A stretch of DNA of 20,000 bases from an uncultured virus (IMG/VR IMGVR_UViG_3300031087_000457) (IMGVR_UViG_3300031087_000457), one strand, 5' to 3'. Counted from the stretch's first letter, positions 1 to 20,000 are shown. Numbers and translations are program-made. The notes: generated by a model from the letters alone, not told the origin.

Positions 1-1
1 C

Positions 2-622
2 AACAGCCTGCGGAAGAAGCTCTACGAGCAGCAGGTGAGCTACCAGGATGGTCGAGTGGCTCTGGGAGAGCTCAAGTCGGAGGCTCGCATCCTTTCGAGC
101 AGCATCACCCACCTCACTGAGAAGAAGGAGAGCGCCGAGAAGGAGATCGAGCGCCATAAGGATCTCCTCAAGTCGGTGGAGGTCGCAACTGCTACGCTCC
201 AGACGCTCATCGAGTTCCGGGCTGATCGAGTCAAGACCGCTCTACCCACCATCGAGAGCTATGCCTCAGAGCTCCTCTCTCGCTTCACGGATGGAAAGTT
301 CGTCGCGCTGAACCTCGATGAGAAGTTCAACGCATCCGTGGTGCTGTCGAGTGGAGCCAAGAGGCCAGTTGCGCTCCTTTCGGGTGGAGAGCTTTCGGCT
401 GCTGCCATCGCGCTGCGGCTCTCTGTGAGCATGATGCTCAATGCCTCAGACAGTAGCAACCTCATCATCCTCGACGAGGTTCTCGTTTCCCAGGACGCTG
501 ATCGCTCCGAGCTCATCCTGTCCACCATCAAGGATGTCTGTAGGGGGCAGGTGGTGATGATTTCCCACGGTTCCGGTGTATCCGCCGTTGCGGACAAGAA
601 AGTCGACCTGGCTGGCAGCTGA
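2..622 (+). CDS. SbcC/Rad50 (SMC-like) ABC ATPase, C-terminal part; 5' end lies outside the window
   Basis: The frame is open from position 2 (NSLRKKLYEQQVSYQDG...). A coiled-coil is followed by the ABC signature LSGGE, Walker B LIILDE, D-loop-like VLVSQD and H-loop ISH. Confidence 0.88.
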   Translation, partial: NSLRKKLYEQQVSYQDGRVALGELKSEARILSSSITHLTEKKESAEKEIERHKDLLKSVEVATATLQTLIEFRADRVKTALPTIESYASELLSRFTDGKFVALNLDEKFNASVVLSSGAKRPVALLSGGELSAAAIALRLSVSMMLNASDSSNLIILDEVLVSQDADRSELILSTIKDVCRGQVVMISHGSGVSAVADKKVDLAGS

Positions 623-624
623 GT

Positions 625-631
625 CGATATG
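625..631 (+). promoter_or_regulatory. CGATATG motif, candidate element-specific -10 box
   Basis: GATAT ends 36 nt before the ATG at 667; recurs in other intergenic gaps. Confidence 0.5.
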
Positions 632-666
632 GCCGCCATAATGGTCGGCCAATGGAAGAGGATTAG

Positions 667-1884
667 ATGCTGAACTTCGTCAACGACCCATTTTGGAACA
701 GCTGCCTGCAATCGCTCGCAAGGCCTGGAGCCTCGGAGTTCGTTGCCAACGGCCCCGACAGCTTCTTCGTGACCTATCAGGGAAAGAAGGAGCGCATTCC
801 AGCTCCAGCTGGCATGAACCTGCGAAGCTACTCAGAGACCCTGGAGAAGAACATCGTTCCTCTCGTAGCCTCGCGAATGAACTTCGATCCCGATGGCTAC
901 ATCTTCGAGGGCCATTACAAGGCCGATGCTGGAGGGGGAAACTCCTTCGAGGGAAGATGCCACATCGCACTCTCGCCCATCGCGGAAATCCCCTACATCA
1001 CCATGACCAAGATCGCCTCAACTTCGAGCACCATCGAGAGCATCGCGGAGTCGGGCTCCATGAGCACTGAGATGATGCAGTTCCTGATCATGGCGGTCCG
1101 CGCAAAGCTCACCATCGTCCTCTCTGGGCAGTCGGGCGCTGGAAAGACCACCACCCTGCAGGCACTGTCGAAGTACTTCAATGAGCAGGATCGCATCGGC
1201 GTGGCTGAGGACATCCCCGAGCTCTCCTTCCCCCAGTCCAATGTGACCTACCTGCACACGCTTCCCCCTCGCCCCGGGCTTGACCCGAACCTTGTGGCGG
1301 ACCTTTCCTTCATCGTTAAGCAGTGGCTTCGAATGCGTCCGGACCGTGGAATCATCGGTGAGTCTCGAGGAAAGGAGTTCGCCGACTTCCTCGTGGCAGC
1401 CAACGCTGGTATGAGAGGATCGCTGACCACCATCCACGCCAGCGATCCATCGGGCGCCCTGGACAAGATGACTCGCTTTGCCCTGGCAGGGTCCGAGAGG
1501 CAGCCCATCCGGTCCATCAACAAGGAGATCGGCTCAGCGGTGGATCTCGTCGTTCAGCTCGCACGCATCGACGGCAAGCACCGGGTGACCCACATCGAGG
1601 AAGTCACGAGCACCGTGAGCAACACCGAAGATGCTCGACTCTCCTCGGAGACGCTCTACGAGTACATGCCTGAGACCGACAACTGGAGGAAGTCTGGAGT
1701 CCTCTCGGACAGACTTCGCAAGGAGCTCACTTCCGCTGGCATCGACATCAAGCCCTTCACTTCAGGCGCCGTTGGAACGATGCTTCCGAAGCACAATCCC
1801 GCCAGGGCTAACCCCAACAGCAACAACGGCGGAGGTTTCTCAGGAGAAAATCCTTTCAGAAGCGGACCAGGAAGGTCTATCTGA
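667..1884 (+). CDS. CpaF/TadA/VirB11-family secretion ATPase
   Basis: Walker A GQSGAGKTT, Asp box AEDIPEL, LRMRPDRGIIGESRG (Walker B region), His box TTIHA and C-terminal VDLVVQLAR..G.HRVTHIEEV. RBS GAGGA precedes the ATG. Confidence 0.92.
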   Translation: MLNFVNDPFWNSCLQSLARPGASEFVANGPDSFFVTYQGKKERIPAPAGMNLRSYSETLEKNIVPLVASRMNFDPDGYIFEGHYKADAGGGNSFEGRCHIALSPIAEIPYITMTKIASTSSTIESIAESGSMSTEMMQFLIMAVRAKLTIVLSGQSGAGKTTTLQALSKYFNEQDRIGVAEDIPELSFPQSNVTYLHTLPPRPGLDPNLVADLSFIVKQWLRMRPDRGIIGESRGKEFADFLVAANAGMRGSLTTIHASDPSGALDKMTRFALAGSERQPIRSINKEIGSAVDLVVQLARIDGKHRVTHIEEVTSTVSNTEDARLSSETLYEYMPETDNWRKSGVLSDRLRKELTSAGIDIKPFTSGAVGTMLPKHNPARANPNSNNGGGFSGENPFRSGPGRSI

Positions 1885-1887
1885 CCC

Positions 1888-2946
1888 ATGTCCGAAAAGA
1901 GAGTGACCGTAGACGCGCTGAGGCTCTATGTGCCCATGTTCCAGCGCGGAGAGGCAGCTGAAGCTCGCTTCAAGGCCGAAGAGGGTAGCCTACCAGATGA
2001 CCTTGCTGATCGTGCAAGGCTCCTGTCCGAGCGACCAATGAAGAAGCTCGCCTACGATGAGCTCACTGAGCTCACCTACCCTCTCATGCGCAGAGAGATT
2101 CAGTCGGTGATCCGCAACAGCCATCTGAAGCGCGAAGAGGATGAGATCTTCTCTGTGATCTACTATGCTGGACTTGGAGGCATGGAGCGAGGGCTGCGCA
2201 AGTTCGAGGTCTCCAAGATCGAGGAGTCTGCCACCAACTACCTCTTCCAGTGGATCATGGTCTACGCCAAGAAGGAGCTCCTGAAGCTAGAGGCTCCCAT
2301 GGGTGTTCCACCGACTCGCTTCCAGAAGCACAAGAAGATCGCAGCTGTCCGCAAGAAGCTCTCTGAGATCCTGGATCGACCTGCCACCAACGAGGAGATC
2401 CTCGAGTACTTCCACACCGGACGGGCTGAGTTCAAGAGCTACAACGGTCCGAAGATCAAGACGGCCGGAGTCTCCGAGGCCAATAAGAAGATCACCATGG
2501 AGCTCATCGAGGAACAGGAGGAGATCGAGAAGAACCTGAGCTTCGCCCAGATCTTCGATTCCTCCGAGGACTACAGGTCCGAAAGGCTGCTCTCAGCCTC
2601 CGACAGGACTCCCTTCTCCGAGACCCTCATGGGTACCTTCGTTTCGAGCATGCGCTTCGACCCCGAGGCCGTCGCCGTGCTCAAGTCCGAACTTCAGCAA
2701 GAGACATCAGAGGCCGAAGATCAGCTCCTTCGAGGAATCTCAGCCACGAAGCACCAGAGCACCATGCGCGTCTGGAGAGAGTATCTCGCTGACCCTCGAG
2801 GAGACTTCAGGACCTTCCTCCAGGGTGAAACTCACAGTGGATTTAGTGACCATGACATCGAAGCAATGCTGAAGTCCTTCGGAGCTGCTCCCAAGAGCAA
2901 GCGCTCCGTTCAGCCAGCTCGCTACAGCGTGCTCTTCGGGAACTAG
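1888..2946 (+). CDS. Divergent sigma-70-family RNA polymerase sigma factor-like protein
   Basis: AGLGGMERGLRKFEVSKIEESATNYLFQWIMVYAKKEL resembles region 2 (EGNIGLIRAVEKFD...FSTYATWWIRQAI). MGVPPTRFQKHKKIAAVRKKLSEILDRPATNEEI resembles region 3 (IRIP...KL.R....L.QELGREPT.EEL). No recognisable region 4 HTH. Confidence 0.72.
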   Translation: MSEKRVTVDALRLYVPMFQRGEAAEARFKAEEGSLPDDLADRARLLSERPMKKLAYDELTELTYPLMRREIQSVIRNSHLKREEDEIFSVIYYAGLGGMERGLRKFEVSKIEESATNYLFQWIMVYAKKELLKLEAPMGVPPTRFQKHKKIAAVRKKLSEILDRPATNEEILEYFHTGRAEFKSYNGPKIKTAGVSEANKKITMELIEEQEEIEKNLSFAQIFDSSEDYRSERLLSASDRTPFSETLMGTFVSSMRFDPEAVAVLKSELQQETSEAEDQLLRGISATKHQSTMRVWREYLADPRGDFRTFLQGETHSGFSDHDIEAMLKSFGAAPKSKRSVQPARYSVLFGN

Positions 2947-2955
2947 GAGAAGAAA

Positions 2956-3234
2956 TTGGACAACCAGACCACGGTGTTTCTCGCACTCATGGCGCTCATG
3001 CTCCTGGGTGTGATCTATGTGATCTACCGCTTCGTTCAGAGTGTGAAGGCCAAGCGTGCCTACGACAGCGAAGAGCTTCCCGATCTCTATGAGGCCTCCA
3101 TCGAAGATGAGGTGCTTCCAGACATCGAGGAATCTGGCTTCTCCGCCCTGGAGGATGACTTCAGCTCCCGGGAAGAGTCAGCTTCAGATATCTACCGAGA
3201 GATCTCGGAAGCCAACGATAGGAACGGTAGATAG
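2956..3234 (+). CDS. Small single-pass membrane protein with acidic tail, unknown function
   Basis: TTG start after AGGAG RBS. N-terminal hydrophobic helix VFLALMALMLLGVIYVIY, then basic residues and a D/E-rich tail. Confidence 0.75.
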   Translation: MDNQTTVFLALMALMLLGVIYVIYRFVQSVKAKRAYDSEELPDLYEASIEDEVLPDIEESGFSALEDDFSSREESASDIYREISEANDRNGR

Positions 3235-3256
3235 GCCTGTAGCAGGCACTTCTCTG

Positions 3257-3263
3257 TGATATT
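3257..3263 (+). promoter_or_regulatory. TGATATT motif, candidate element-specific -10 box
   Basis: GATAT ends 69 nt before the HU ATG. Confidence 0.4.
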
Positions 3264-3331
3264 GGTTCACGGATCGCAACGATCATCAGGCCCACTTCGG
3301 GCGCAACCGGAAAGAAAGAAGAGGTAACCCT

Positions 3332-3622
3332 ATGGCTGATCTACTCAAGAAGGAAGAGCTCGTAGCCGCTGTCGCGGAGGAGACCAACCTCACGAAGGCC
3401 GATGTGACTCGAGTTCTCGCATCGCTTCAGGAGAACATCACCAAGGCAGTTGTCGATGGCAAGCAGGTGAAGCTCCCCGGCTTCCTCGCCTTCGAGTCCC
3501 GCACCAACGCAGCTCGCACCATGAGGAACCCCTCCACCGGCGAGCCCATCCAGGTCGCCGAGAAGAAGGTCGTCAAGGTTCGGCCTCTCACTGCCTTCGC
3601 AGACACGGTCAAGAACAGCTGA
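3332..3622 (+). CDS. hup: HU family histone-like DNA-binding protein
   Basis: KKEELVAAVAEETNLTKADV...VKLPGFLAFE...AARTMRNPSTGEPIQVAEKKVVKVRP has the HU/IHF signature, including the intercalating RNP motif. GAGG RBS; followed by a terminator. Confidence 0.95.
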   Translation: MADLLKKEELVAAVAEETNLTKADVTRVLASLQENITKAVVDGKQVKLPGFLAFESRTNAARTMRNPSTGEPIQVAEKKVVKVRPLTAFADTVKNS

Positions 3623-3639
3623 TCTTCCTGAAGATCTTG

Positions 3640-3677: not shown

Positions 3678-3742
3678 GCCGCGAGGGGATCAACATTTCG
3701 GTACTGTAGCCCGGAAACACTCACCCAGAAAAAGGAGAGCCC

Positions 3743-4218: not shown

Positions 4219-4629
4219 GTGAAGGAATCCCACGCCCGGCCGGGCTACAAGCGCAGGCACAGGTCCCTGGTGGACGATGTGGCTGCCCACGCCAACATCC
4301 GCAGGGATGTGGTCGAAGATGTGCTCAACGGCTTCTACGACATCATGGCGGAGAGACTTCTCAACGAGCGAGAGTTCCTCCTCAAGGACCTGATCTCGAT
4401 CCACGCTGTGCGAACGAAGAACGGGATCCGGCCTGAGCCGCATCTTCAGTTTCGAGCAAAGGTCTCTCAGGGCCTCCGGAAGCTCCTGCAGCGCACCGAG
4501 GAGGATCCGGCCCTTGAGGTAACTCGAGAGAGCTGGCGGGATCAGATCCGAGCACTCAGGGGGAGCTCCAGGAGCGGTTCAAAGCCCATGGAGCTCAGCG
4601 ACTTCCTCAGGGATGATGACGAGGATTAG
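4219..4629 (+). CDS. Divergent HU/IHF-like DNA-binding protein
   Basis: RSLVDDVAAHANIRRDVVEDVLNGFYDIMAERLLNEREFLLKDLISIH...FRAKVSQGLRKLL follows the HU helix1-helix2-beta-helix3 pattern with a shortened arm and a C-terminal extension. GTG start 2 nt after the upstream stop. Confidence 0.6.
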   Translation: MKESHARPGYKRRHRSLVDDVAAHANIRRDVVEDVLNGFYDIMAERLLNEREFLLKDLISIHAVRTKNGIRPEPHLQFRAKVSQGLRKLLQRTEEDPALEVTRESWRDQIRALRGSSRSGSKPMELSDFLRDDDED

Positions 4630-4686: not shown

Positions 4687-5214
4687 ATGCTCACCTACGC
4701 ATCAATGCCCCAGGATACGAAGCGCATCGCCAGCGCGAATCTCGGTCGAGGCGTTCTACGGTCGGTGTTTTCAGGTGGCCACGAGTACCACCTCATGCTG
4801 AAGCTCGAGGACGGTGAGATCATTGGCTTCGCTATCTACCACTTCGAGGAGTACAGCGCCGGCGGCAGGGATGGCATCCTTGGAGTGCTGGACTGCGTTG
4901 TGGTGGACGAAGCTCAGAGACGCATGGGCTATGGCTCAGAGATGACCTTCGCAGTCTTCAAGAAGATGTCTGCCTATGGCGTGGATCGGGTCGAAATCCT
5001 GATCAAGGAGCCCGGCTACCTCGACCGGGACGGAGAGCCTGGAGTTCCCCTCGCGAGTCCCAGCTCGATCTTCGATCTCCTAGGCTTCAAGGAGGTCAAG
5101 ACCTTCCATGGGTACTATAGAACGGCCTCGGAGAGACTCGGCTACGAGTGCAAGTTCTGCGGGAATATGCCGGACAGCTGCAGGGCTGTTCTCTACGCGA
5201 AGGAATCTCTCTAG
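4687..5214 (+). CDS. GNAT-family N-acetyltransferase with C-terminal Cys cluster
   Basis: Acetyl-CoA binding motif A VVDEAQRRMGYGSEM, N-terminal GEIIGF strand, motif B FDLLGFKEV and C-terminal CKFCGNMPDSC. Confidence 0.85.
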   Translation: MLTYASMPQDTKRIASANLGRGVLRSVFSGGHEYHLMLKLEDGEIIGFAIYHFEEYSAGGRDGILGVLDCVVVDEAQRRMGYGSEMTFAVFKKMSAYGVDRVEILIKEPGYLDRDGEPGVPLASPSSIFDLLGFKEVKTFHGYYRTASERLGYECKFCGNMPDSCRAVLYAKESL

Positions 5215-5304: not shown

Positions 5305-8300
5305 ATGGCACTTGGAAGGCAGCAGGGGGGATCCTTCTACCTGGATTCCACCGACCTTCAGCCTCAGGGCCGTCGGACACCTAGATTCCGTAGACTTCGG
5401 GAGCTCTCTCCCGCAAAGCTCTTCCTTCAGTTCACCGTGACTCTGGTGGGACTTCTCGTCATCGCCTCCGGACTTCAGCTCACCGTGCTCGCCGATGTGA
5501 TCCGCAGTGCCAGCGCAGCTGAGAAGCCCCAGGTGGGAAACAGTGGCGAAGACGACGGATCGGCCGAGGCCAACAAGAAGCTCAAGCAGGCCATGGAGGA
5601 CTCGGGCTTCGATCCCGATTCCCAGTCGGACTTCGAGAAGTGGGGCTCACAGGTTCGAGCTCCCAAGGATCGGAACAGCTTCGACTACCTCTTCTACAGG
5701 CTCTTCGTTCCTCAGTACATCAACAGCACTCCCAACGCTGTGAGCACAACCAACAGTGGAAGGACCTCCGGCTGCGCCGCGCCCCAGAATGGCAAGGGCA
5801 CCATCGTCTACCACAACTGCGATGTGCCCAACATCTCAGGTGAGATCGTCCAGGACATCGTTCGGTTCATCGTTCCCTCCGGAGCCTACAACGCGACACA
5901 GGAATCGGCCAAGGCAACCTTCGGCCTCCCCAGTGGCATCCTTCCCGGCAACGGTCAGGTACCCGTGAGCGAGGGTGCTCGGAGCTACAAGTACACCGGC
6001 CTCGAGCTCTACGGCTACAATCTCAAGTACAGCGCCTACCTCGGTGAGTGGGACTACATCAAGGTCTTCACCAAGGCTCGCGCCATGAGCAACTTCGGCG
6101 TCTTCGACAATCTGAAGCTCGGTGGTAAGGCCGTCATCGACGGTGCTGTGGGTGCTGTGGGCAACAGCGTCGAGGGCTGGAACAGCGGTTTTGACTCCGG
6201 TGGTCTCGCTGGAGCAATCGGAGGCTTCTTCAGCGGGTTCTTCGAGGGCGGCGCTACCGCCAGCGTCAACACCATCATGGACACATCTGATCTCAATGTG
6301 TTCGAGCAGCAGGCCTGGTATCGACCGGACTTCGGGGCCACTACCTACGGCGCTCGATCCATGAACTCAGCGGAGCTATCGGCGGAGTCCCTTCGCTGGA
6401 TGAACTCCATGATGAACTACTACCAGCCCAACAAGGGCGTCATCCCTGAGGACTTCCCCAGCAAGACTCCACCGGCAAAGCCTCTAGAGGCGATCTCCAG
6501 CTGTGCGGTGATCTCCAATGCCTCTGGAGCCATGAAGGCCTGGGGACAGAAGAGCACCGCTCCAGGGGTCACAGAGGCAGAATGTAGGGCCGAAGGCGAC
6601 AGGCTCAAGGCATCTATCCAGTCTGACCTCAACGACGCTGCTACGGGCGGAGAGGAACCACAGCAGCTCACGGGCGCATCCTACAAGTGGGATGCCGAGG
6701 GCACGCAGGCTCAGGAGTCCATCGCTTCCTGGAGTCAGAAGAACAGTGGCTTCATCTCCTCCATGAGCAAGTATGGCTGGAGCTGCTCGCTTCCCAGCGA
6801 GGGTAGCCTTCAGGGTCGCGCTCCAGGCATCGACGCCTGGTACAGCTGCTTCAGCTCAAGCTACGACGCCAACTACACCAAGACCCTCAACGAGGAGAAG
6901 GTCAAGGAGAACAACAAGTACACCGACAGCATCTTCGGAAAGTTCTCCGGGCTCTTCGCTGGATTCTATGCGGCGCTCCACCAGGACGGCAATTTCAACG
7001 CTGCCTACAACCGCTTCGTCTGCCAGGACACTCGCACCGGCAAGGACATCATGGACGGAGCCCGCAACGCGAGGGTCTACAACAGCGACGGAACGCTTAC
7101 GGGCAAGTGTGGAGCCATTCGAGCTCCCATCCAGGACGGACTCTACGGCAACGGCTACACCGCTGGCCAGAACAGCGCTGCCCAGGATACTCGCCGGGCG
7201 GCATTCAGCCCCCTGGAGAGCCTGGCCACTGCCCTGGGCAACACTGCAGCCAACATGTCTCTGAAGGTCTCGGTTGTCGTCACTCAGCTTTCGAACACCG
7301 TGCTCGGCCTCGCCTTCACTCCGGTGCTCGACGCTCTGGGCATCCGAGATGTGGTGACGAGCCTCGTGACGAGCTTCCGGGACAGCATGTTCATGCCCCT
7401 GGCCGTGCTCATCATCGCCCTGGGAGCGGTGAGCATCCTTATCCGAGCCATCCGTAGCGGAGCCTACGCATCCGCCTTCGGTTCTTTCCTCTACATCGTG
7501 GCCGCCTTCCTCCTCGGCGTCATCATCCTCGCTAAGCCCGCAGCAACCCTGAAGGCCATCGACGAGGCTCCGGTGCTCATCGAGAACACCGTGCTCACGG
7601 CCATGTTCAGCTCCAGTGGCTCTGCCGACGAGCTCTGCACCGCCACTGGCAGCTCTAGCGGTGTGGGCACTGGTGGTAAGCAGATCGACAACACGAGAGG
7701 CTTCGATCCCAACGCTAGCACCCGCATGCTCATGTGCGAGAACTGGAGATCCTTCGTCTTCACGCCCTGGGTCTTCGGTCAGTGGGGTACCGGCTACGAG
7801 AACCTCTACGCCAAGGGCTATGCTCCAGAGGGGGCCAAGGAGCTCACCAACACCAACGGGAAGCTCGTGGGCAATGCCGGAGTGAACTTCGGTGGCGGCA
7901 ATGTGATCCACAACTGGGCTACCTACCAGCTCGCCACAACCTCAGTGGGCACCTCCACCACCGCAGACCCCTCGAGGCCCACCGGTGTGGTCAACAAGAA
8001 CTTCTACCGCATCGTGGATGCTCAGATGGGACCCAACGGGGGCAAGGGCACAGATGCTACCTACGCCCAGAGCTGGTCCAAGTTCAGTGGCGACACGGCA
8101 GCTGCCACCATCTTCGGTCCAGTTGCTGCAGTCATGGGTGCTGTGGTGGTCATCGGCTACACCCTGGCGAAGCTCGAGCTGGTCTTCGTGACGATCTTCC
8201 TTCTGGTCATCCTTCCGATCATGCTCCTCATCGGAATCCACCCCACCTTCGGAAGACAGAAGCTCAAGGCCTACGCTGGCACCCTAGTCGGCCTGATGAT

Positions 8301-12641: not shown

Positions 12642-12742
12642 GGCGCTGATCTGATCGAACTTCACAGGCACATGCCGAGCGACTGTTCGGCGCTCAGCGG
12701 GGCAGCTACTGGCGCTGAGAGGGTGTCCATGATCGCTGCCGT

Positions 12743-12749
12743 TGATATG
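12743..12749 (+). promoter_or_regulatory. TGATATG motif, candidate element-specific -10 box
   Basis: GATAT ends 41 nt before the ATG at 12790. Confidence 0.5.
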
Positions 12750-12789
12750 GAACAGCGAGACAGAACCTCTAGAGAGCGTTAGGCACACC

Positions 12790-14154
12790 ATGGGAATCTT
12801 CGACAAGGCGAGAAGCACCATCGCTGGTCGCTTCGGCGACGAGACCGTCCGTAAGGGCAACTTCGGCGCCCGGGAAGAGGATGAGCAGGAGCAGCGGCAG
12901 CCCCGAGGGCAGAAGCTCAAGAGATCGCCCCGCCAGAAGCCTACTCGAACTGAGCCTCGGCAGGAAGATCCCCAGGCTGACCAGAGCGATGGCTTCGGTG
13001 CCGATGATGACAGCTTCGAAGATGAGTACAGCTTCGAAACTCGAGACGAGCCTGGGGTCATCGATTCGCAGGCGCTCTCCGCGCTGTCGACCGACCAGGG
13101 ACAGTCTGTTGAGGAGATCCTAGCCTCCATGAGGATCGAGGAGACCTTCACCATCGACGAGGGTATCCTCTTCATCGACGAGGAGCTCGCCAACCAGCAG
13201 TTTGCCACACAGGCACCCTACGGCTACGACATGGGTGAGGTAGACTACTTTCTCACGAAGACTCAGCGCTCCATCGCTGAGTATGTGAAGCTCCTTCGCC
13301 GGCGCAACGACGATGTGGTGAAGCTTGCCTCTCGAATCAGCGACATGTCGGTTGAGATCAACAACATGCGCTTCAGCTCTGAGGTCGCCAACGGTATCAA
13401 CATCATGGCCAGCGGTGGAGACGAGGATAGCCTCGCCGTTGATCTCCAGGAAGCTCGCTCCAGGGCCCAGAGACTCCAGGAGAGGCTCGACATGCTCGAA
13501 GCAGCTCCCCGGGAGCGCGACGAGGACGAGCTTGAGATCCTGCGCAACGAACTCGCTGCTGAGAGGCGTTCCCGGGAGGGCTTCGAGGCCGAGGCCGCTG
13601 ATCTTCGGGCCCATCTCGTGCTCATCGAGGAGGAGTACGACATTCAGGTCTTCTCGGACCGGGGAGAGCTTCAGCAGCCCAGCAGTGGCACTGAGGGCTA
13701 TGACAGCTACTCCGAGCAGCGGGGCGATAGATTCCAGGATGTGTCCGGCATCGACAGCCGTGCCCAGGATGAGCTCTACGCTGAGGAGTCCAACTACCAG
13801 CAGGTAGGTCGAGATCACTGGCTCCCCAACAGCGACGACGACCAGAGCCTTCCGGACATGTCCTACGAGGAGGAGGGTCTCCCGGATGGCTCCTTCGAGT
13901 TTGAGGAGCAGTCCCTGGAAGAGCTTCCCCTGGGATCCTTCGAGGGCAGCGCCGGGGGGTTCGATCAGACCGACGATAGCTTCCAGGACTCTGCTTTCAC
14001 GGCCAATCCCTACCAGAATCTCGATGAGTTCATCGAGGAGAACAGTAGCGTTTTCCCCGATGATCCAGCCTCCAGCGAGAGGGACTTCGATAGAGTAGAC
14101 TCCGAAGAAGATCCCGACGAGGACGGCTTCAGCTACAGCTTCGAACGCAGATGA
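12790..14154 (+). CDS. Acidic coiled-coil protein with internal DivIVA-like domain
   Basis: EELANQQFATQAPYGYDMGEVDYFL matches the DivIVA/GpsB N-terminal motif (DI.NK.F....RGYD..EVD.FL). It is followed by heptad coiled-coil and a very acidic tail. ATG 12790 is preferred over TTG 12742 (same frame). Confidence 0.7.
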   Translation: MGIFDKARSTIAGRFGDETVRKGNFGAREEDEQEQRQPRGQKLKRSPRQKPTRTEPRQEDPQADQSDGFGADDDSFEDEYSFETRDEPGVIDSQALSALSTDQGQSVEEILASMRIEETFTIDEGILFIDEELANQQFATQAPYGYDMGEVDYFLTKTQRSIAEYVKLLRRRNDDVVKLASRISDMSVEINNMRFSSEVANGINIMASGGDEDSLAVDLQEARSRAQRLQERLDMLEAAPRERDEDELEILRNELAAERRSREGFEAEAADLRAHLVLIEEEYDIQVFSDRGELQQPSSGTEGYDSYSEQRGDRFQDVSGIDSRAQDELYAEESNYQQVGRDHWLPNSDDDQSLPDMSYEEEGLPDGSFEFEEQSLEELPLGSFEGSAGGFDQTDDSFQDSAFTANPYQNLDEFIEENSSVFPDDPASSERDFDRVDSEEDPDEDGFSYSFERR

Positions 14155-14190
14155 GCTGCAAGAAGTAATCCCTCAGAGAAAAGGCACCCA

Positions 14191-14703
14191 ATGACCGCAG
14201 CTGACCTCATGCTCTACGGCCTCCTGGTCATTCCCTTCCTGGGCACTCTGGCCGCTGGCTACGCGAAGCTTCGGGTGGGCCCTTTCCTGGGACTGACCAG
14301 TGCCCTGGGGGCTGTCTCGGTGTTCCTGAGCTACATCCTCCTAGATTTCAGCTCTGCGATGGTTCAGTTCGGAGTCCTCGCCCTGGGCGCCTTCCTCTTC
14401 TTCCTCACCATCGGGCTTCTGGGAGAGCGAGTGAGCTATAGGTCACCCATGCTCCTCCTCGCCGCAGTGTCTCTCTTCCCCCTCGGGCTGGTCCTGGCCA
14501 GCGGCACGCTTCTAGCCCTGCTCTTCTACGGCATTCTCATCGTTGCCAGCATTCTCTTCGCACTCCTTCTGACCTACATTCGTAGGAACTCGCTGACGGG
14601 GCGCAAAGGCCGAGAGAAGCCCAAGAACCGCTTCATGCTCACCATCCCCACCATCGTAGCAACAGTCGTTGCCGGACTCACGGTGCTTGCTCAGATTCAG
14701 TAG
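14191..14703 (+). CDS. Polytopic membrane protein (about 5-6 TM), unknown function
   Basis: Almost entirely hydrophobic, with one basic loop RRNSLTGRKGREKPKNR. AAAGG RBS. Confidence 0.8.
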   Translation: MTAADLMLYGLLVIPFLGTLAAGYAKLRVGPFLGLTSALGAVSVFLSYILLDFSSAMVQFGVLALGAFLFFLTIGLLGERVSYRSPMLLLAAVSLFPLGLVLASGTLLALLFYGILIVASILFALLLTYIRRNSLTGRKGREKPKNRFMLTIPTIVATVVAGLTVLAQIQ

Positions 14704-14725
14704 TCTGGGTCTCGCTTGAGCTCAC

Positions 14726-14732
14726 CGATATA
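14726..14732 (+). promoter_or_regulatory. CGATATA motif, candidate element-specific -10 box
   Basis: GATAT ends 34 nt before the ATG at 14766. Confidence 0.5.
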
Positions 14733-14765
14733 GGTTGCACCTTCAGCTAGTAGGAGAGAGTTCCC

Positions 14766-15875
14766 ATGGTAGACTCCAAGGGATCACCACAGATCCCCGA
14801 AGACGCTGCTCCCAAGAGGCCTTCGGATGCAGCTCCATCTGGCGAGCCCGCAGCCCGTCGAGACCCTGTTCTTGAGGAGCTCCTGCGCTCGAGGTCCGCT
14901 GACAGCGAAGGCGCAGCAGCCAAGGCTTCAAGGCGCAGGAAGCCAGCCAAGACTGGCACCTCTCTGGATCGAAAGTCTCGCAAGTCGAAGCTTCCGCTCA
15001 TCGCGCTCATCGTGGCCGGTGTGGTCCTCGTCGGTGGAGGCGGTGCTGCTACCTGGTTCGCACTATCTCCGGCCCAGTCGCAGATCGACCCCGACCGCAA
15101 CAAGGACAAGACTCAGAGCGTCACTGAGAAGGAAGCGGATCCTGCCGACGAAGTCGACGCACCCTTCAACAAGGAAAATGGAGTCTTCCCGGTCAAGCTC
15201 GACAAGTGGGAGCAGGACTCTGGAGTTCAAGGCCTCAGCCCAGAGGATAAGGCTAAGGTTGCAGAGACTTTCTACGGAACCGACCTCAACACCTCTGCTA
15301 GCATCCTTCCGTCGGAAGCTGCTGGCTTCACTTCTGATGATTCCAAGAGTGAGAACGAGGACGGAACGCTCAACGGCTACTACAGCTACTGGACTCAAGA
15401 GTCCTTTACCGCTGACGCCGGCGAGATCATCGAGAAGTTCCTTAACCCTCGCTTTGGCAACTGGGAGCAGTACCAGAAGCCCGGATCTGATCCCGCATCG
15501 ATCAATCCAGCCCAGCAGTTCCCGAACACCTTCACGACAGAGCTTCTCGATAGCAAGGAGCCTGTGCAGAGTTGGCTTCCGATCTACGCTGACTGGAACG
15601 GAAACAACTACGGAAGAAGCGATCTATCCGCCACCGGCGCACGCTGGTACGGCGAGATCACAGACTCCAACTCCGACTTTGTCTTCGATGAGGAGACTGG
15701 CCAGTACACTGTGAACTTCAAGGCCAATGTGAAGTTCACAGCCTATGGCCATGACGGAGAAAAGGTTTCAGAAAACGGAGTGCTATCGCTCGAGTTCGTC
15801 GCCAATCCTGGCGGTGAAGCAGGACCCGGTGGAAAGGTCCTCGTAAACAGGTCTAGTCTGACCATTGGTGGTTGA
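14766..15875 (+). CDS. Bitopic membrane protein with extracytoplasmic domain (possible VirB8/TcpC-like)
   Basis: AGGAG RBS; basic disordered N-terminus, single TM LPLIALIVAGVVLVGGGGAATWFAL and a beta-rich C-terminus. The family assignment is only inferred. Confidence 0.75.
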   Translation: MVDSKGSPQIPEDAAPKRPSDAAPSGEPAARRDPVLEELLRSRSADSEGAAAKASRRRKPAKTGTSLDRKSRKSKLPLIALIVAGVVLVGGGGAATWFALSPAQSQIDPDRNKDKTQSVTEKEADPADEVDAPFNKENGVFPVKLDKWEQDSGVQGLSPEDKAKVAETFYGTDLNTSASILPSEAAGFTSDDSKSENEDGTLNGYYSYWTQESFTADAGEIIEKFLNPRFGNWEQYQKPGSDPASINPAQQFPNTFTTELLDSKEPVQSWLPIYADWNGNNYGRSDLSATGARWYGEITDSNSDFVFDEETGQYTVNFKANVKFTAYGHDGEKVSENGVLSLEFVANPGGEAGPGGKVLVNRSSLTIGG

Positions 15876-15876
15876 A

Positions 15877-18093
15877 ATGAAGAACGCTAAGAAGACATCC
15901 TGGAGGAAGCTCCTTGCCGGCTTCGCTGTCGGCGGCGTGCTCCTTTCCGGGCTAGCCGTGGTGAATGGGCCAGGCGGCGCTGGATCGCTGATCACAGATG
16001 CTAGTGCCGGTGTTTCCGGTGGCGGTGGTGGAGGCGGCGGTGGCGCTGGTGGTACCGGCTACGCTACCTGGCAGCAGATCTCTCGCACCAAGGCGATGAA
16101 CGGCACTATCCAGAACCTGCCTTCAGAGATCAACAGTGATGTCTGTCAGAACGCTGAGGCTTACTTCGCACTTGTGCCTAACTCGGTGGGGGCCAACGCT
16201 CAGCGAGATAGCTGGACCTTCAACCTCTACGGTGTGAGGGGACTCCAGGGTGCGGACTTTGCTGGTGGAGCTGACCTCGCAACTCGCATCGCCAACAATG
16301 TGGGCTGGAGCTACCAGCAGGGTAGGGACTACCTCTACCAGAAGAACTTCATCTGCCTCGACAATCCCAATGTGCTCGCCGAAAGGCAGTGGCGCTATGA
16401 AGTTCGCTCAAGCTCGTCGAAAGATTCTCTCAGCGAGAACCAGATCTACAACCTCGTTACTCAGGTCGCCCCTCAGCCCATCGAGGGCAAGGCTGATCCT
16501 GCTGGTGCGGCCAACCTCCACTCCCAGTCGGATGAGGTAAAGACCAACTACGGAAAGGTCTGGGATGACTTCAAGAAGGCTTCCACCGCAAGCGGTGCAA
16601 GCTCTAAGGACTTGGTGGAGCAGTTCAAGTCTCGCTTTGCTGATGCTAAGAGCAAGGATAAGTCCATCGCTAGGGGATCTGTCGATCTTGATGCAGCGAA
16701 CAGGACAGGTATGGGAGAGGGCGGTGTCCTTAACATCAGCGAGTTCTCTCGCATGGCCAAGGCAACTGCTTCGACCTCTACCACTAAGTACCAGGTCTGG
16801 CGTTGTGGATGGGACCGCTACACCAAGAGCGGCTGGCAGCCAAGTGCTGCTTGCGAGCGAGTCGGTGGAAGCTCCTTCAATCCCAACAGCCTCTCTCGCG
16901 GTAGCTTCAACAGCGCAATCTGGAAGAACAGCACCGAGCGCAACAGATACAATCCTGTGAAGTCCGGTCAGACTGAGTGGGAGCGATTCTCTAGCAGCGC
17001 TAGCAACAATCTTGCCACCCAGCAGAAGGTTGGATTCTGGCAGCTTCTCGCTGTTCACTGTAACCCTGCTGAGTTCGCAGCTCTCGTTAAGTCCATGGGT
17101 ACAGGCGGAACCGTGCTAAGCTCTGGAGACAGCAGCAACACCATCTCCGGCCTGATCCGTACGAGGTACTTCGATGCGCAGCCTGCAATTCTCCCGTTCG
17201 GAGATAGCAAGAACACCGATGCTGCCCGCAAGGCGACTTCGAAGCTTGGATTCTTCGACAAGGAGTGCCCCTTCGATTGTACTCCAATCAAGACGGGTAC
17301 CGGCGCCTCCTCTAAGAATGACGCCATCAACAATGTTGGAGCTACTGGTGCCACCAACGCAGCTAAGGGTAAGTACGGATCGCAGGTGGACAACATGACC
17401 ACCGACGATAAGAGCACTCACACCTACACCAATTCGAGCTACTCAGAGATGTTCCGTGACAACCAGGGTCGCACCGTTCGCCCCGATGTCTGGTACCCCG
17501 TATCAAACAAGGGTGTGGTCTACGACGGTTCTGCTCCCAAGAGCACACTGATCACTCGCTGGGCAGGCGGAACACCTACCCTCGGCGATGAGTTCCAGGT
17601 CTTCAGAGAGGTGACCAAGAGCGGCAGCACTACTCTTGATCCGCTCTTCGACCCAAAGACCAACGCTCAGCCCAACCAGAAGAACAGCTTCACTAGCGGT
17701 TCAGCATCTAGCTTCAAGGGCTCTACGGCAACACAGGTTCCGGGACTCGTGAACGAGCTGACTGTTCAGTCCTCTTGGGCATCGGATAGTGGAAAGCCTC
17801 AGGCTCTCCAGGTAGCATGGCAGTACGCACCCAAGGTGAACTCCAATGTGCCTTCGAGTTTGAGCTTTGCTACTGGTGGCACCAACATCAAGATTGGCTC
17901 GAATGTGACAGTGAGCACAAATGTTGACGGTCGATGCTGGGGTACCTTCGGAACGACTGCCACGACTTCGGCTGTGACTGATCTCGCCAACAACACGGGA
18001 AGTGGAAAGACCACCAACTTCACGACCCCCAACGGTAGCGTAGACAACGCTCGCAACCTGGTCCTGAACTTCGTTCGAGGTGCCAGCGAGTAA
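15877..18093 (+). CDS. Large secreted/surface protein (signal peptide, Gly linker, Ser/Thr/Asn-rich)
   Basis: MKNAKKTSWRKLLAGFAVGGVLLSGLAVV...ASA is signal-peptide-like, followed by poly-Gly and several Cys. ATG 15877 lies 1 nt after the upstream TGA and is preferred over 15865. Confidence 0.8.
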   Translation: MKNAKKTSWRKLLAGFAVGGVLLSGLAVVNGPGGAGSLITDASAGVSGGGGGGGGGAGGTGYATWQQISRTKAMNGTIQNLPSEINSDVCQNAEAYFALVPNSVGANAQRDSWTFNLYGVRGLQGADFAGGADLATRIANNVGWSYQQGRDYLYQKNFICLDNPNVLAERQWRYEVRSSSSKDSLSENQIYNLVTQVAPQPIEGKADPAGAANLHSQSDEVKTNYGKVWDDFKKASTASGASSKDLVEQFKSRFADAKSKDKSIARGSVDLDAANRTGMGEGGVLNISEFSRMAKATASTSTTKYQVWRCGWDRYTKSGWQPSAACERVGGSSFNPNSLSRGSFNSAIWKNSTERNRYNPVKSGQTEWERFSSSASNNLATQQKVGFWQLLAVHCNPAEFAALVKSMGTGGTVLSSGDSSNTISGLIRTRYFDAQPAILPFGDSKNTDAARKATSKLGFFDKECPFDCTPIKTGTGASSKNDAINNVGATGATNAAKGKYGSQVDNMTTDDKSTHTYTNSSYSEMFRDNQGRTVRPDVWYPVSNKGVVYDGSAPKSTLITRWAGGTPTLGDEFQVFREVTKSGSTTLDPLFDPKTNAQPNQKNSFTSGSASSFKGSTATQVPGLVNELTVQSSWASDSGKPQALQVAWQYAPKVNSNVPSSLSFATGGTNIKIGSNVTVSTNVDGRCWGTFGTTATTSAVTDLANNTGSGKTTNFTTPNGSVDNARNLVLNFVRGASE

Positions 18094-18112
18094 GCTGCAT
18101 GGCTAGTCCCCG

Positions 18113-18153
18113 AGAGGGAGCGTAGGTTTCGATCTACGCTCCCTCTTCCCTTT
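18113..18153 (+). terminator. Stem-loop, probable intrinsic terminator
   Basis: AGAGGGAGCGTAG pairs with CTACGCTCCCTCT (13 bp), extended by G.U and U-A pairs closing a UUCG loop. Followed by TCCCTTT. Confidence 0.75.
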
Positions 18154-18218
18154 GGCTGAAGTCGGCCCGTTGCTCGATACCATGGACCCGAAGATAGTCG
18201 AACCGGAGGTACGAGCTG

Positions 18219-19880
18219 GTGAACAGCGCGAACAAGAAGAAGAGCTACAGGGAGCTCAAGGCAGACCCCGTCATCAAGGCGCCACTCCTGGCCTGGATCC
18301 TAGACAGGAAGGCCGTCTACATCTCAGTGACGCTGGTCGGCTGCCTCGCGGCCGGAGCCTTCGTCTACCAGGGCTGGCAGTCCTACCAGGACATCATCGC
18401 TCCACCCAAGGATACCTCGCCCTATCGGGCCATCGACCCGGCTGAGTCTCAGGGTGTGCGCTGGGCGTCGAGCTTCGTAGTGAACAGCCACGGCGTAGCC
18501 GACTGGGAGGTCAAGGACTCCATCCAGCCCAACCACGGCTTCATGCAGGATGCAACTGGCAGCACTGCCGGTGAGGTTCCCGTTACTCTCCTCGCAACCC
18601 GGGTAGCCTCTGCCGGTCCCGTGAAGGCCATGGCTCAGATCTACGGAGCTGGACAGGCTCGGAAGCAGTACGATTTCTATGTGAGCAAACTCGCTGCTCG
18701 AGGCACCGTTGACAGCAAGCAGGTTTCGGACGCTGGAATCTACGGAGCGAAGTTCGACAACGGGTTCATCCTCGTGGCCGGAGACGCAATCGTCGGAGCT
18801 CAGACCGCCGACAACGGTCAGCGGGACAAGCTCTTCGGGGACTACCTCAGCTCCCTGGAGTCCACACTCCCTGAGTCGGGCTGCGCGAGCGTCTCAGGTG
18901 CCGACGAGTCGAAGCGCAGCATCTACTTCGATCCCAACTCCTTCCAGGGGCTCCTCGAGACCCGAAAGATCGATCCCCAGGTCAACACAGACAACCTCCC
19001 CACCGTCCAGGGCATCGGAGCCAAGGATGTGAGCAATCCCTACGCAACTGAGCCGGAAGGTCCTCTGCCCGCATCGCTGCCGAAGCTTCCCAGTGAGGTG
19101 GCCAAGCCCACTGTGGACAACGCTCCGGCAACAGTGAACAGCTTCCAGGAAGAAGCATCCTACCGGGTCAAGGATCCCGTGGGCCCTGGCTGCGGCTGGG
19201 ACTGGTCTGCTCAGAAGCCCCTCAAGTACAATGAGGCTGACCTGAAGGCCGCCAAGGAGAACACGCTCACCAAGGTCCAGAACGATGTGAACGGTAAGGC
19301 TCAGAGCTATGTGGACTCGAAGATCCAGTGGGCTCGACTCGCTGCGCTCATCGCACCTCAGCTCGACAGCTGGAATCACTATGTGCAGGATGTGAACGAG
19401 GTCCACGCCAAGTGGGACAAGCTCACCAAGGATCGTCAGGCCCTGCGGCCCGCCTGGGATCAGTACATCTCAGACCATGAGCTCTGGAAGAGCTTCGACT
19501 CCCGCAAGGCAGCAGCTCAGCAGAGCTATTCTCAGGCCCAGGATCAGTGTCTCGCCGACCGCAAGGCCCACGACGAGTGGGAGACCGAGTGGGGGCCCGA
19601 AGCCCTGAAGAAGAAGCAGGATGCCTGGAGAGAAGAGCAAGAATCTCAGAAGCCCAAGCCCTCTCCGAATCCGAGCTCCAACCCCACCTCTACTCCCAGC
19701 CCCTCTCCGAGCCAGAGCTCCGAGCCCACAAGCCCCATGCCGACTGCTCCCCCTGAGCCAGCAGACTGCACTGGATCTCCCGTGAGACCCGCGATCCTCG
19801 ATCAGCAGAAGCCGGCAGAGCCTGCACCTCCTACCATTCCCGAGGATGTGACCGTTCCGAGCTCCTGGCCGCAGCCCTAG
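18219..19880 (+). CDS. Membrane-anchored extracytoplasmic protein with coiled-coil and Pro/Ser-rich C-terminus
   Basis: GTG start after GGAGG. TM AVYISVTLVGCLAAGAFVY, a Trp-rich helical/coiled-coil segment, and a PKPSPNPSSNPTSTPSPSPS tail. Confidence 0.8.
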   Translation: MNSANKKKSYRELKADPVIKAPLLAWILDRKAVYISVTLVGCLAAGAFVYQGWQSYQDIIAPPKDTSPYRAIDPAESQGVRWASSFVVNSHGVADWEVKDSIQPNHGFMQDATGSTAGEVPVTLLATRVASAGPVKAMAQIYGAGQARKQYDFYVSKLAARGTVDSKQVSDAGIYGAKFDNGFILVAGDAIVGAQTADNGQRDKLFGDYLSSLESTLPESGCASVSGADESKRSIYFDPNSFQGLLETRKIDPQVNTDNLPTVQGIGAKDVSNPYATEPEGPLPASLPKLPSEVAKPTVDNAPATVNSFQEEASYRVKDPVGPGCGWDWSAQKPLKYNEADLKAAKENTLTKVQNDVNGKAQSYVDSKIQWARLAALIAPQLDSWNHYVQDVNEVHAKWDKLTKDRQALRPAWDQYISDHELWKSFDSRKAAAQQSYSQAQDQCLADRKAHDEWETEWGPEALKKKQDAWREEQESQKPKPSPNPSSNPTSTPSPSPSQSSEPTSPMPTAPPEPADCTGSPVRPAILDQQKPAEPAPPTIPEDVTVPSSWPQP

Positions 19881-19950
19881 GGTGGTTGCCCCGGGGTCGG
19901 AGGCCGGCCTTTCTGCCGGCTCTCAGCTGAAAGATAGGCTGTTCTGAGCG

Positions 19951-19991
19951 CGGGCGCTAGAGCATCGATAGCTTCGACGCTCTAGCGCCCG
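19951..19991. terminator. Long inverted repeat, probable (possibly bidirectional) terminator
   Basis: CGGGCGCTAGAGC-a-TCGA-tagct-TCGA-c-GCTCTAGCGCCCG. The A/C mismatch becomes G.U on the minus strand; TTT follows on the plus strand. Confidence 0.65.
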
Positions 19992-20000
19992 TTTCCCGTG

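Follow-up and report, generated by a model that had tools for sequence, protein, structure and literature searches.

Avoidance of short palindromes as restriction sites occurs in phages and in promiscuous conjugative plasmids. The staphylococcal phage K is reported to lack GATC, plasmids of the IncP group are poor in 6-bp palindromes, and comparative surveys of palindrome avoidance exist; the tetramer ACGT is the specificity of restriction enzymes of the MaeII/TaiI/HpyCH4IV type. In the literature that we searched, no mobile element has been reported as ACGT-free. Depletion of this tetramer has been described in Helicobacter pylori, where the methyltransferase M.Hpy99XI makes A(5mC)GT and ACGT density ranges from 53 to 295 per Mb, with about 53 per Mb in hpEastAsia; the available part of that study attributes the depletion largely to deamination of 5-methylcytosine (PMC10423294). 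A density of ~53 per Mb indicates that a cellular genome can approach such depletion partly by mutation. Giant extrachromosomal elements have also been described, among them, as far as the accessible portions of the reports go, the plasmid-like Inocles of oral Streptococcus (PMC12340149) and the linear Borgs of Methanoperedens (10.1101/2021.07.10.451761).

The DNA analysed here, which we call the window, is a stretch of 20,000 bases (1..20000) in which ACGT does not occur once on either strand. The first-pass annotation had claimed this total absence, together with an expectation of about 70 sites, and both statements hold: the expectation is 72.6 under independent bases, 38.7 (sd 5.95) in 200 dinucleotide-preserving shuffles and 30.5 under a second-order Markov model (Markov-2), and thus ranges from 30.5 to 72.6 depending on the null. 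The Markov check of observed over expected tetramers that the same annotation had proposed places ACGT, at 0, far below expectation; it is alone among tetramers in having a ratio of 0, with CATA coming next at 0.25. ACG had been counted well over a hundred times and never before T, and its actual count is 255, the next base being A in 90 cases, C in 74, G in 91 and T in none; tetramers one substitution away from ACGT number 827. Other palindromes are common, as had been noted, with counts of 157 for GATC, 202 for AGCT, 187 for TCGA, 102 for CCGG, 126 for GGCC and 42 for GTAC. Like the sites of Type II enzymes, ACGT is a short palindrome, identical to its own reverse complement.

The ACGT gap follows the reading frame and is produced by synonymous codon choice. 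Codons for Asp, Asn, Tyr and His end in T in 36 of 36 cases before Val (GTN), against 216 of 870 elsewhere in the window, just as the first-pass annotation had described. The six positions that it cited carry the hexamers it gave, the last with a small shift: TATGTG (Tyr-Val) at 1927..1932 on the plus strand, one of the 36 NAT/GTN pairs that avoid NAC/GTN, TATGTG again at 3016 and 13282, CATGTG at 3773, and GATGTG at 5821 and, for the site placed near 19287, at 19284. Likewise, Thr is never encoded by ACG before a codon starting with T (0/53, against 59/305 elsewhere), and Arg is never encoded by CGT after a codon ending in A (0/21). Synonymous-codon shuffles of the 15 window genes yield a mean of 33.3 ACGT (sd 3.8), where none is observed, and the minimum among 500 such shuffles is 22.

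A gap of this kind might also arise by mutational decay, with methylation to A-5mC-G-T by host or element, and deamination to ATGT/ACAT outpacing the gain of sites under little or no selection. The available part of the H. pylori study documents this mechanism for the same tetramer, with M.Hpy99XI, transitions skewed to ATGT/ACAT and changes that are mostly silent and, in the second codon frame, give ATGT (PMC10423294). In keeping with it, the most frequent replacement in the window is ATGT (the 36 NAT/GTN sites), and ATGT exceeds its Markov expectation both in the window (49 vs 32.1) and in its relative L003 (48 vs 35.6). However, NAT is the sole synonymous escape in that frame, so that ATGT there is uninformative on mechanism, and Thr before T is mainly encoded by ACC (39/53), ACA accounting for 5/53 as against 28/305 elsewhere. 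Moreover, an observed/expected ratio below about 0.03 would require a more than 30-fold excess of rate at every site. As the accessible text describes it, H. pylori depletion concerns a cellular chromosome and is incomplete and variable between populations (PMC10423294), whereas the count here is zero and ACAT, which deamination on the opposite strand would yield, shows no excess (53 vs 56.6, 75 vs 70.7 and 62 vs 61.1). On balance, mutational decay seems an unlikely explanation.

Metagenome contigs of 206-674 kb and IMG/VR records of 89-438 kb carry the gene block of the window in conserved order, and a search of GTDB species genomes returned no relative. The three closest relatives are also devoid of ACGT, with 0 observed in L001 (12.5 expected under Markov-2 and 13.9 in codon shuffles), in L002 (33.1 and 29.4) and in L003 (30.3 and 24.0), and they make the same codon choices: NAT before GTN in 16/16, 30/30 and 27/27 cases, and Thr-ACG before T in 0/17, 0/49 and 0/44, respectively. 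The ACGT-free clade was read over 20 kb in the window, 8.5 kb in L001 and 21 kb each in L002 and L003, with largely overlapping gene content (its full contigs are Ga0308170_10000077 and Ga0308157_10000029), and this pooled sequence of ~71 kb with zero sites bounds the density at roughly 42 per Mb (95%). In a tree of the 1420-aa giant protein described below, which within the ACGT-free set is full-length in the window, L002 and L003, these three form a clade with support of 100/100, and the sister lineage L005 (100/100) retains ACGT (20 vs 25.1 under Markov-2, and 19 vs 30.9 in codon shuffles). The ACGT-free lineages being one clade, the purge has a single origin and does not represent three independent events. 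Four-fold sites differ at 501/949 positions between the window and L002 and at 453/882 between the window and L003, close to a saturation figure of 0.69 that is itself a rough estimate; judging from these differences, the purge is maintained through near-saturated synonymous divergence. In the pooled clade, the counts of CGATCG (9 vs 24.6) and TCATGA (3 vs 18.8) are also low under a fourth-order Markov model, which fits pressure from several restriction systems.

These comparisons bear as well on the notion that sequencing, assembly or data cleaning created the gap, which we hold to be extremely improbable. The window is covered with 0 differences by independently assembled contigs of run X1, although X1 may be the source sample, and 66% and 64% of sampled window words are present in the public runs X2 and X3. 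Besides following the reading frame through synonymous choices, the gap is confined to some contigs, for ACGT is present in others from the same metagenomes, including L005 and L008 from the metagenome of the ACGT-free L003.

The genes of the window form a block on one strand, all features below lying on the plus strand. At its left end, 2..622 encodes the C-terminal part of an SbcC/Rad50-like ATPase whose gene continues past that end and which is full-length in L003 (757 aa); its product matches PHROG 77 (4.2e-19) and, below cut-off in each case, Pfam SMC_N and SbcC_Walker_B and NCBIfam Rad50 (3.1e-20). It is followed by a predicted TadA/CpaF/VirB11-type secretion or conjugal-transfer ATPase of 405 aa (667..1884), with Pfam T2SSE at 1.5e-28 (99.9 bits vs a cut-off of 24.9) and NCBIfam matches to TadA, conjugal-transfer-associated (2.5e-35), and VirB11 (3e-33), both below equivalog cut-offs; its relatives at 61-95% identity are all without names. 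The conserved 352-aa protein at 1888..2946 has no assigned function and no Pfam or NCBIfam match, but is kept in 11/11 related loci (L001-L011) at 40-97% identity; a language-model lead hints that it might be sigma-factor-like, Sigma70 domains occurring in a minority of the members of its atlas neighbours. An HU/IHF-family DNA-binding protein of 96 aa (3332..3622; Pfam Bac_DNA_binding 7.5e-27, over cut-off) is joined by a weak HU-like protein of 136 aa (4219..4629; Bac_DNA_binding 9.8e-4, with 19.8 bits falling short of the 22.4 cut-off) and by a GNAT acetyltransferase of 175 aa (4687..5214; Pfam Acetyltransf_1 3.1e-8, over cut-off).

Two giant, putatively VirB6-like membrane proteins come next. 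The first, of 1420 aa (5305..9567), carries a VirB6-like stretch of the CD3337/EF1877 'mobilome membrane protein' kind (NCBIfam NF046089, 2.4e-10; 39.8 bits, short of the cut-off of 120) and has no Pfam match; it is kept in 10/11 of the loci L001-L011, with none in L006 and with its first 189 residues only in L001, where the contig ends. The second, of 1022 aa (9573..12641), has a similar stretch (NF046089, 3e-11, 42.8 bits, below the same 120 cut-off), and its counterpart in the complete relative G003 (L020:3510-6617) matches Pfam TrbL/VirB6 above cut-off (7.5e-7; 29.6 bits vs 25.9). The remaining five ORFs (12742..19880; 470, 170, 369, 742 and 553 aa) have no assigned function, show weak sub-threshold matches only (e.g. 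DivIVA, FliL-like), and PADLOC found nothing in them.

The claim that this is mobile-type DNA is supported by the conjugal-type ATPase and the VirB6-like giants, and by complete relatives that are records of 345-438 kb with terminal repeats and type IV secretion genes. Among the latter, G003 (344,889 bp, complete, linear, CheckV 100%) has inverted repeats at its ends, with 55 bp matching perfectly, and carries transfer-type genes for a VirB4-like AAA_10 protein (168.7 bits), TcpC, TcpE, an FtsK-like protein and a TraG/TraD-type (TraG-D_C/TrwB-type) coupling protein; no relaxase family was matched in it beyond a NikA-like accessory protein, and the window itself contains no VirB4-type ATPase, coupling protein or relaxase. 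Genes for ribosomal proteins, tRNA synthetases and the RNA polymerase core found no match in the complete relatives, including the 299 ORFs of G003. IMG/VR classes the relatives as viral. TerL_ATPase (PF03354) was matched in 0/3 related records, and neither Pfam scans of the 299 G003 ORFs nor PHROGs on 30 Pfam-negative ones gave a capsid, portal or terminase, though very divergent phage structural proteins may still be present in G003. From gene content, the window is best read as one portion of the gene block for transfer and maintenance in a predicted very large, plasmid-like extrachromosomal element of conjugative type. HU, sigma-70, PASTA, G5, Tcp-type transfer genes and a penicillin-binding protein indicate bacteria, probably with a Gram-positive-type envelope.

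Borgs have linear molecules that terminate in inverted repeats, and their genes lie mostly on one strand. They are archaeal, whereas the genes of the window and its relatives indicate bacteria; what the element shares with them, in the part of the report available, is very large size, extrachromosomal state and mostly hypothetical proteins (10.1101/2021.07.10.451761). Inocles, which were compared by description and gene kinds and not by sequence, measure hundreds of kb and have no bacterial marker genes, traits also seen in G003, and the accessible text lists gene kinds that occur in G003 too: DNA polymerase III alpha, gyrase, a sigma factor, a bifunctional transglycosylase, S26 signal peptidase, VirB4 and VirD4-type proteins (PMC12340149). 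On the other hand, that source describes Inocles as circular, with 24-32% GC, and as defined by InoC with Replic_Relax (PMC12340149), while G003 has inverted terminal repeats, the window has 59% GC, and Replic_Relax (PF13814) was found in 0/3 related records, G003 included. The words 'GATC', 'restriction' and 'methyl' are absent from the portion of the Inocle preprint available.

Relatives with the same syntenic module as the window have purged other tetramers. In G003, whose ATPase is 45% identical to that of the window, GATC is absent over all 344,889 bases, terminal repeats included, against 1116 expected, which we judge too extreme for deamination; in G001 there are 0 GATC against 616 expected, and in G004 AGCT is reduced to 146 against 1245 (0.12) within the 400 kb read. 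No tetramer purge was found in G002 or G005. Mutational decay is further disfavored by the outcome of a search for cytosine-5 methylases, which found none in G001, G003, G004 or G005. The clade-specific purge of ACGT and the GATC and AGCT purges in relatives are the pattern that restriction pressure would produce, and not that of a family-wide composition bias. It is conceivable that ACGT is reserved as a functional signal for binding, nicking or regulation, with a few functional copies elsewhere on the replicon, or that a bias is shared with the host chromosome. Nonetheless, the retention of ACGT by sister L005, the exclusion of GATC or AGCT instead by relatives, and the lack of any reserved GATC in G003, even in its terminal repeats, make such non-defence readings very unlikely.

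The first-pass annotation had offered two selective agents, and they fare differently. Selection against an ACGT-specific defence accords with a synonymous, persistent and clade-specific purge, but neither a nuclease nor a methylase specific for ACGT was encountered anywhere in the sequences examined, and the search for restriction-modification genes that it called for, run on the element side with Pfam, NCBIfam and PADLOC, gave none in the ~30 kb of the clade read. A nuclease borne by the element, without a partner methylase and used on competing DNA or on the host, is quite unlikely. Most proteins of the clade belong to no known family, and such an enzyme could hide among them or on the remaining replicon, at least 90% of the whole. 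Yet the window and 10 kb upstream in L003 yield no nuclease-type match beyond the SbcC-like ATPase, and the complete, GATC-free G003 has no DpnII-family gene, which leaves that option unsupported. The nuclease-type Pfam families of G003 (HNH, NERD, GmrSD_C, PD-(D/E)XK, NucS, YqaJ and RNase_T exonucleases) name no sequence specificity, an absence qualified by one Pfam-negative ORF that PHROGs call a homing/HNH endonuclease. In addition, a resident enzyme cutting all unmethylated ACGT would presumably destroy an unprotected host chromosome.

We therefore consider that the window probably records lineage-specific avoidance of ACGT restriction sites in a giant conjugative-type element, driven by Type II restriction in its host range. 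One clade would have lost the palindrome and would continue to remove new copies: the bacteria that the element enters would most likely carry a Type II activity cutting unmodified ACGT, a restriction enzyme of this sort being the putative selective agent across its host range, and new mutational sites would be eliminated by purifying selection. In coding sequence, such selection would account for the use of NAT over NAC ahead of Val and for the lack of Thr-ACG before T and of Arg-CGT after A. No DNA methyltransferase was found in G003, where PF02086, PF01555 and PF00145 are unmatched and Pfam scans over the full set of 299 called ORFs give none; lacking a methyltransferase of its own, such an element would have site absence as the sole protection working in every host. 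By analogy with G003, the purge may extend over the whole replicon, the clade itself having been read over ~30 kb of the syntenic region. The likeness to site avoidance in phages and plasmids lies in a Type II-like palindrome missing beyond chance, synonymous removal, lineage specificity and unmodified mobile DNA; the differences lie in the word, ACGT, in the size of the carriers, and in relatives that purge differing tetramers. The case thus appears to be a known phenomenon, restriction-site avoidance, in an extreme and apparently new instance, in which carriers of 0.2-0.7 Mb would have hundreds to a thousand sites to keep out.

The tetramer ACGT, whose apparent total absence had been pointed out in the first-pass annotation, does not occur once on either strand of the 20,000 nt of the window, as opposed to 72.6 occurrences expected from base composition, 30.5 under a second-order Markov model and 38.7 (sd 5.95) in 200 dinucleotide-preserving shuffles. 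It is the sole tetramer of the window with an observed/expected ratio of 0; the second lowest, CATA, stands at 0.25. The remaining four-base palindromes have ratios of 0.58-1.3 except for the rare TTAA, and those named in the annotation are indeed common. The 255 ACG trinucleotides are followed by A, C and G in 90, 74 and 91 cases, and never by T. Coding sequence on the plus strand makes up 95.6% of the window, and the switching among synonymous codons described from the sequence holds up on counting. Codons for Asp, Asn, Tyr and His end in T in all 36 cases in which a Val codon follows, compared to 216 of 870 elsewhere, and the reported hexamers are present at each of the six positions cited as examples (near 1927, 3016, 3773, 5821, 13282 and 19287). 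Likewise, the Thr codon ACG precedes a T-starting codon in 0 of 53 cases, against 59 of 305 in other contexts, and the Arg codon CGT is used in 0 of 21 cases after an A-ending codon. Shuffling of synonymous codons within the 15 genes of the window yields a mean of 33.3 ACGT sites (sd 3.8), with a minimum of 22 in 500 shuffles. The ACGT gap is thus the product of codon choice.

The same gap is observed in three related loci that together with the window compose an ACGT-free clade, and for which about 30 kb of the syntenic region were read. No ACGT is found in L001 (an 8.5-kb contig whose ATPase is 92% identical to that of the window), L002 (contig Ga0308170_10000077, 206,630 bp, 78%) or L003 (contig Ga0308157_10000029, 673,773 bp, 65%), as opposed to 12.5, 33.1 and 30.3 sites expected under the second-order Markov model and 13.9, 29.4 and 24.0 in codon shuffles. 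T-ending Asp, Asn, Tyr and His codons are again the only ones used before Val (16/16, 30/30 and 27/27, respectively), and Thr-ACG never precedes T (0/17, 0/49 and 0/44). On the other hand, the related locus L005 (475,499 bp, ATPase 63% identical) retains 20 sites where the Markov model predicts 25.1, and its genes contain 19 against 30.9 expected from codon shuffling. In a maximum-likelihood tree of a giant protein encoded by these loci (10 rows, L001 being omitted because its copy is truncated), the window, L002 and L003 form a clade with 100/100 support and L005 is placed as their sister, also with 100/100. Hence, the purge had a single origin, later than the split from L005. The window differs from L002 at 501 of 949 four-fold degenerate sites and from L003 at 453 of 882, which is near our own rough figure for saturation (0.69). 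Within the window, 827 tetramers lie one substitution away from ACGT, and ACGT sites must have been continually created by mutation and lost again, with the purge being kept since its origin. Two further comparisons are uninformative in this regard: L005 orthologues contain 12 ACGT sites, only one of which coincides with an identical dipeptide in the window (AACGTC versus AATGTG), too few for use, and none of the 40 strain differences inspected in reads, from a total of 2,663, creates an ACGT where about 0.5 would be expected.

The window, L002 and L003, when pooled, are also low in CGATCG (9 versus 24.6 expected) and TCATGA (3 versus 18.8), with GATC and CATG themselves at expectation. A separate trait concerns the Val codon that follows T-ending Asp, Asn, Tyr and His codons in the window, which is GTG in 31 of 36 cases (e.g. 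at 4276, 4306 and 4318), compared to 27 of 48 where another T-ending codon precedes Val and about 33-37% where the preceding codon ends in A, C or G. The excess is present in L002 and L003 as well, and also in L005, which retains ACGT, and so resembles a codon-pair bias unrelated to the purge.

That the gap is an artefact of sequencing or assembly is next to inconceivable, given that independent contigs reproduce the window, that the gap obeys the reading frame and that the same metagenomes yield ACGT-bearing contigs. More distant relatives show, in addition, that ACGT is not the only word affected. GATC is completely missing from G003, a related IMG/VR record of 344,889 bp in which 1116 sites are expected, and from G001 (616 expected), which is 92-98% identical to G003 over about 185 kb and also lacks CTCGAG and CTGCAG. 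In G004 (437,576 bp, of which 400 kb were read), AGCT is reduced to 146 sites against 1245 expected (0.12), evenly along its length, and CTAG to 306 against 730. L008 is low in CTAG (11 versus 34.2 expected) and L005 in AATT (15 versus 42.7), and the related records G002 and G005 show no purge. As a side note, bases 40-60 kb of G004 are mirrored exactly near the opposite end of the record, which would be explained by a fold-back assembly or by a very long inverted repeat at the termini. The retention of ACGT by the sister lineage L005 and the purging of other words by relatives make it very unlikely that ACGT is a reserved functional signal, or that its absence reflects a bias shared with the host.

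A purely mutational origin, in which methylated A(5mC)GT sites decay by deamination, has a precedent in Helicobacter pylori, where an excerpt of PMC10423294 documents the process down to about 53 ACGT sites per Mb. Zero sites in about 71 kb bound the ACGT density here only at roughly 42 per Mb, so that the counts alone are compatible with deamination. Nonetheless, ACAT is not raised, Thr codons before T are mostly ACC instead of ACA, and the total lack of GATC in G003, against 1116 expected sites, seems more than mutation pressure alone could achieve; we thus regard deamination as a rather unlikely explanation. Searches of G003 for the DpnII family and for the three main families of DNA methyltransferases gave no match, and no cytosine-5 methylase was found in G004 or G005.

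The 15 ORFs of the window lie on the same strand and include the C-terminal part of an SbcC/Rad50-like ATPase, a TadA/CpaF/VirB11-type ATPase (Pfam T2SSE, 99.9 bits), an HU protein and a weak HU-like protein, a GNAT acetyltransferase and two giant proteins of 1420 and 1022 aa. Part of each giant matches, below threshold, the CD3337/EF1877 "mobilome membrane protein" family, the VirB6-like component of Gram-positive transfer systems; profile searches assign the other ORFs to no known family. PADLOC finds no defence system, matching only SMC/Rad50-like ATPase look-alikes and one sigma factor. No Rfam family is present in the window, L001, L002 or L003, and no tRNA gene in the six related loci scanned (L001-L005 and L008). 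Immediately 3' of the last gene, between 19950 and 19990, two perfectly complementary arms of 12-13 bases enclose a 15-base loop in the manner of a terminator; contigs of related strains end or diverge at positions 19944 and 19968. A short repeat lies at 16012-16054, and reads seem to be truncated there.

Megablast of the window against phage and plasmid collections returned no close DNA match, the ATPase retrieved only CpaF-type proteins below 35% identity from the plasmid collection, exact 40-base stretches from both window ends had no match in viral_contigs, and two scans of GTDB species genomes revealed no relative. Unnamed relatives of the ATPase, with 61-95% identity, are nevertheless found on contigs of up to 542 kb, the 95%-identical one (P0124) on a contig of roughly 293 kb; a metagenome scan produced eight related loci and two IMG/VR scans added more. 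The order SbcC, ATPase, 352-aa protein, HU, GNAT, giant, giant recurs among the eleven loci L001-L011, with no match to the 1420-aa giant in L006, and marks a single module that very large replicons of one family have conserved. Ten public sequencing runs were listed as matching the window, none of them RNA; those holding it are labelled as phyllosphere metagenomes, and one (X1) is possibly the source sample. In two others (X2 and X3), the strain of the window itself is scarce (depth about 10-13), relatives with about 85-90% identity are more abundant (about 45-60), and hence several lineages of the clade co-occur in one community.

The nature of the family is best appreciated in G003, classed by IMG/VR as bearing inverted terminal repeats and by CheckV as 100% complete, which has a perfect terminal inverted repeat of 55 bp and 251 of its 299 called ORFs on one strand. 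Pfam searches of these ORFs identify a replisome (DNA polymerase III alpha, DnaB, DnaG, clamp loader, SSB, gyrase A and B, NAD-dependent ligase), together with RecA, RecG, ribonucleotide reductase, a tellurite-resistance-type cluster and cell-wall enzymes (a PBP1-type transglycosylase/transpeptidase, an S26 signal peptidase, NlpC/P60, and PASTA and G5 domains). Transfer genes comprise a VirB4-like AAA_10 protein, TcpC, TcpE, an FtsK-like protein, TrbL/VirB6, a TraG/TraD-type coupling protein, a NikA-like protein and Tad-pilus parts. None of the 299 ORFs matched a ribosomal protein, a tRNA synthetase or a core subunit of RNA polymerase; no large terminase was found in the family records searched, and no capsid, portal or terminase family among 30 Pfam-negative ORFs compared with PHROGs. 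From this combination of transfer genes and replisome, with neither cellular core genes nor terminase or capsid, we read the family as putative extrachromosomal elements of bacteria that are giant, plasmid-like and of conjugative type, with a highly divergent jumbo phage as a residual alternative. Their hosts probably possess Gram-positive-type envelopes, and a lead provided by a language model suggests Actinomycetota as the candidate host of the window's clade. A small-genome bacterial chromosome had been considered because of CpaF matches named Dojkabacteria and contigs of 0.3-0.8 Mb, and was dropped given the lack of ribosomal-protein, tRNA-synthetase and RNA-polymerase-core matches in the complete relative G003 and of any GTDB match. 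A halophilic archaeal origin, raised by the richness in TCGA and GATC, was dropped on protein isoelectric points and codon usage. G003 also carries a series of about twelve adjacent ORFs (350-420 aa each, all on one strand) without Pfam match, possibly tandem paralogues (L027:3145-17606), and several proteins made of up to six repeated DUF4379 treble-clef zinc-finger domains (e.g. L017:2896-4464, L017:17891-19792 and L016:1606-3360).

Lineage-specific restriction-site avoidance is the best-supported explanation for the ACGT purge. For an element that carries no methylase and whose DNA is unmodified on entry into new cells, presumably by conjugation as its gene content suggests, having zero sites would be the safest state, and selection would then eliminate every newly arisen one. 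Removal of sites might even be preferable to methylation, since methylated sites could become targets of modification-dependent nucleases in other hosts. The interpretation put forward in the first-pass annotation is supported in part, as regards mobile DNA under long-term, lineage-specific selection; a restriction activity is the candidate agent, and no ACGT-specific nuclease or methylase was observed in the sequences searched. An ACGT-specific nuclease carried by the element itself without a methylase seems unlikely: no sequence-specific restriction-enzyme family is found in the window, in G003 or in the 10 kb upstream in L003, and the host of a resident plasmid-like cutter would need protection too.

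Palindrome avoidance is well known in phages and promiscuous plasmids, and the window's clade presents the same kind of phenomenon. It departs from known cases in the word avoided, in the size of the carriers, and in the sister lineages, each devoid of a different tetramer and, in the members searched, showing no match to a DNA methylase. In gene content, the family resembles the giant plasmid-like "Inocle" elements; as far as an excerpt of PMC12340149 describes them, it differs in that the relatives tested have no Replic_Relax domain, present in the Inocle marker, and bear terminal repeats instead of forming a circle, and in the GC content of the window (59% versus 24-32%). Literature searches of open-access papers and bioRxiv revealed no mobile element described as ACGT-free and no mention of this giant-element family, which carries a replisome of its own, type IV secretion genes and terminal repeats, and seems to have been little studied. 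Site avoidance itself is an old idea, and the chief interest here is the clean family-wide pattern and its little-described giant carriers.

Elements of hundreds of kb that have completely lost a four-base word, a different one in each sister lineage, and that encode no methylase themselves preserve an unusually clear natural record of how restriction has acted on mobile DNA of very large size. Were the whole replicon purged, several hundred to about a thousand sites would be kept at zero by selection, implying that one site alone is costly at transfer. The missing word may serve as a predictor of what the restriction system of an unknown host cuts. As a tentative possibility, we suggest that the window belongs to an undescribed family of giant (0.09-0.67 Mb) conjugative-type extrachromosomal elements, at least some with terminal repeats, that have their own replisome but no methyltransferase in the members searched and are defended purely by erasing tetramers, each missing word (ACGT, GATC, AGCT) being the imprint of the dominant restriction system in its host range. 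Should this be the case, tetramer "holes" could help to identify the hosts of giant elements found in metagenomes, and an unreported, widespread ACGT-cutting system would be predicted in leaf-surface bacteria.
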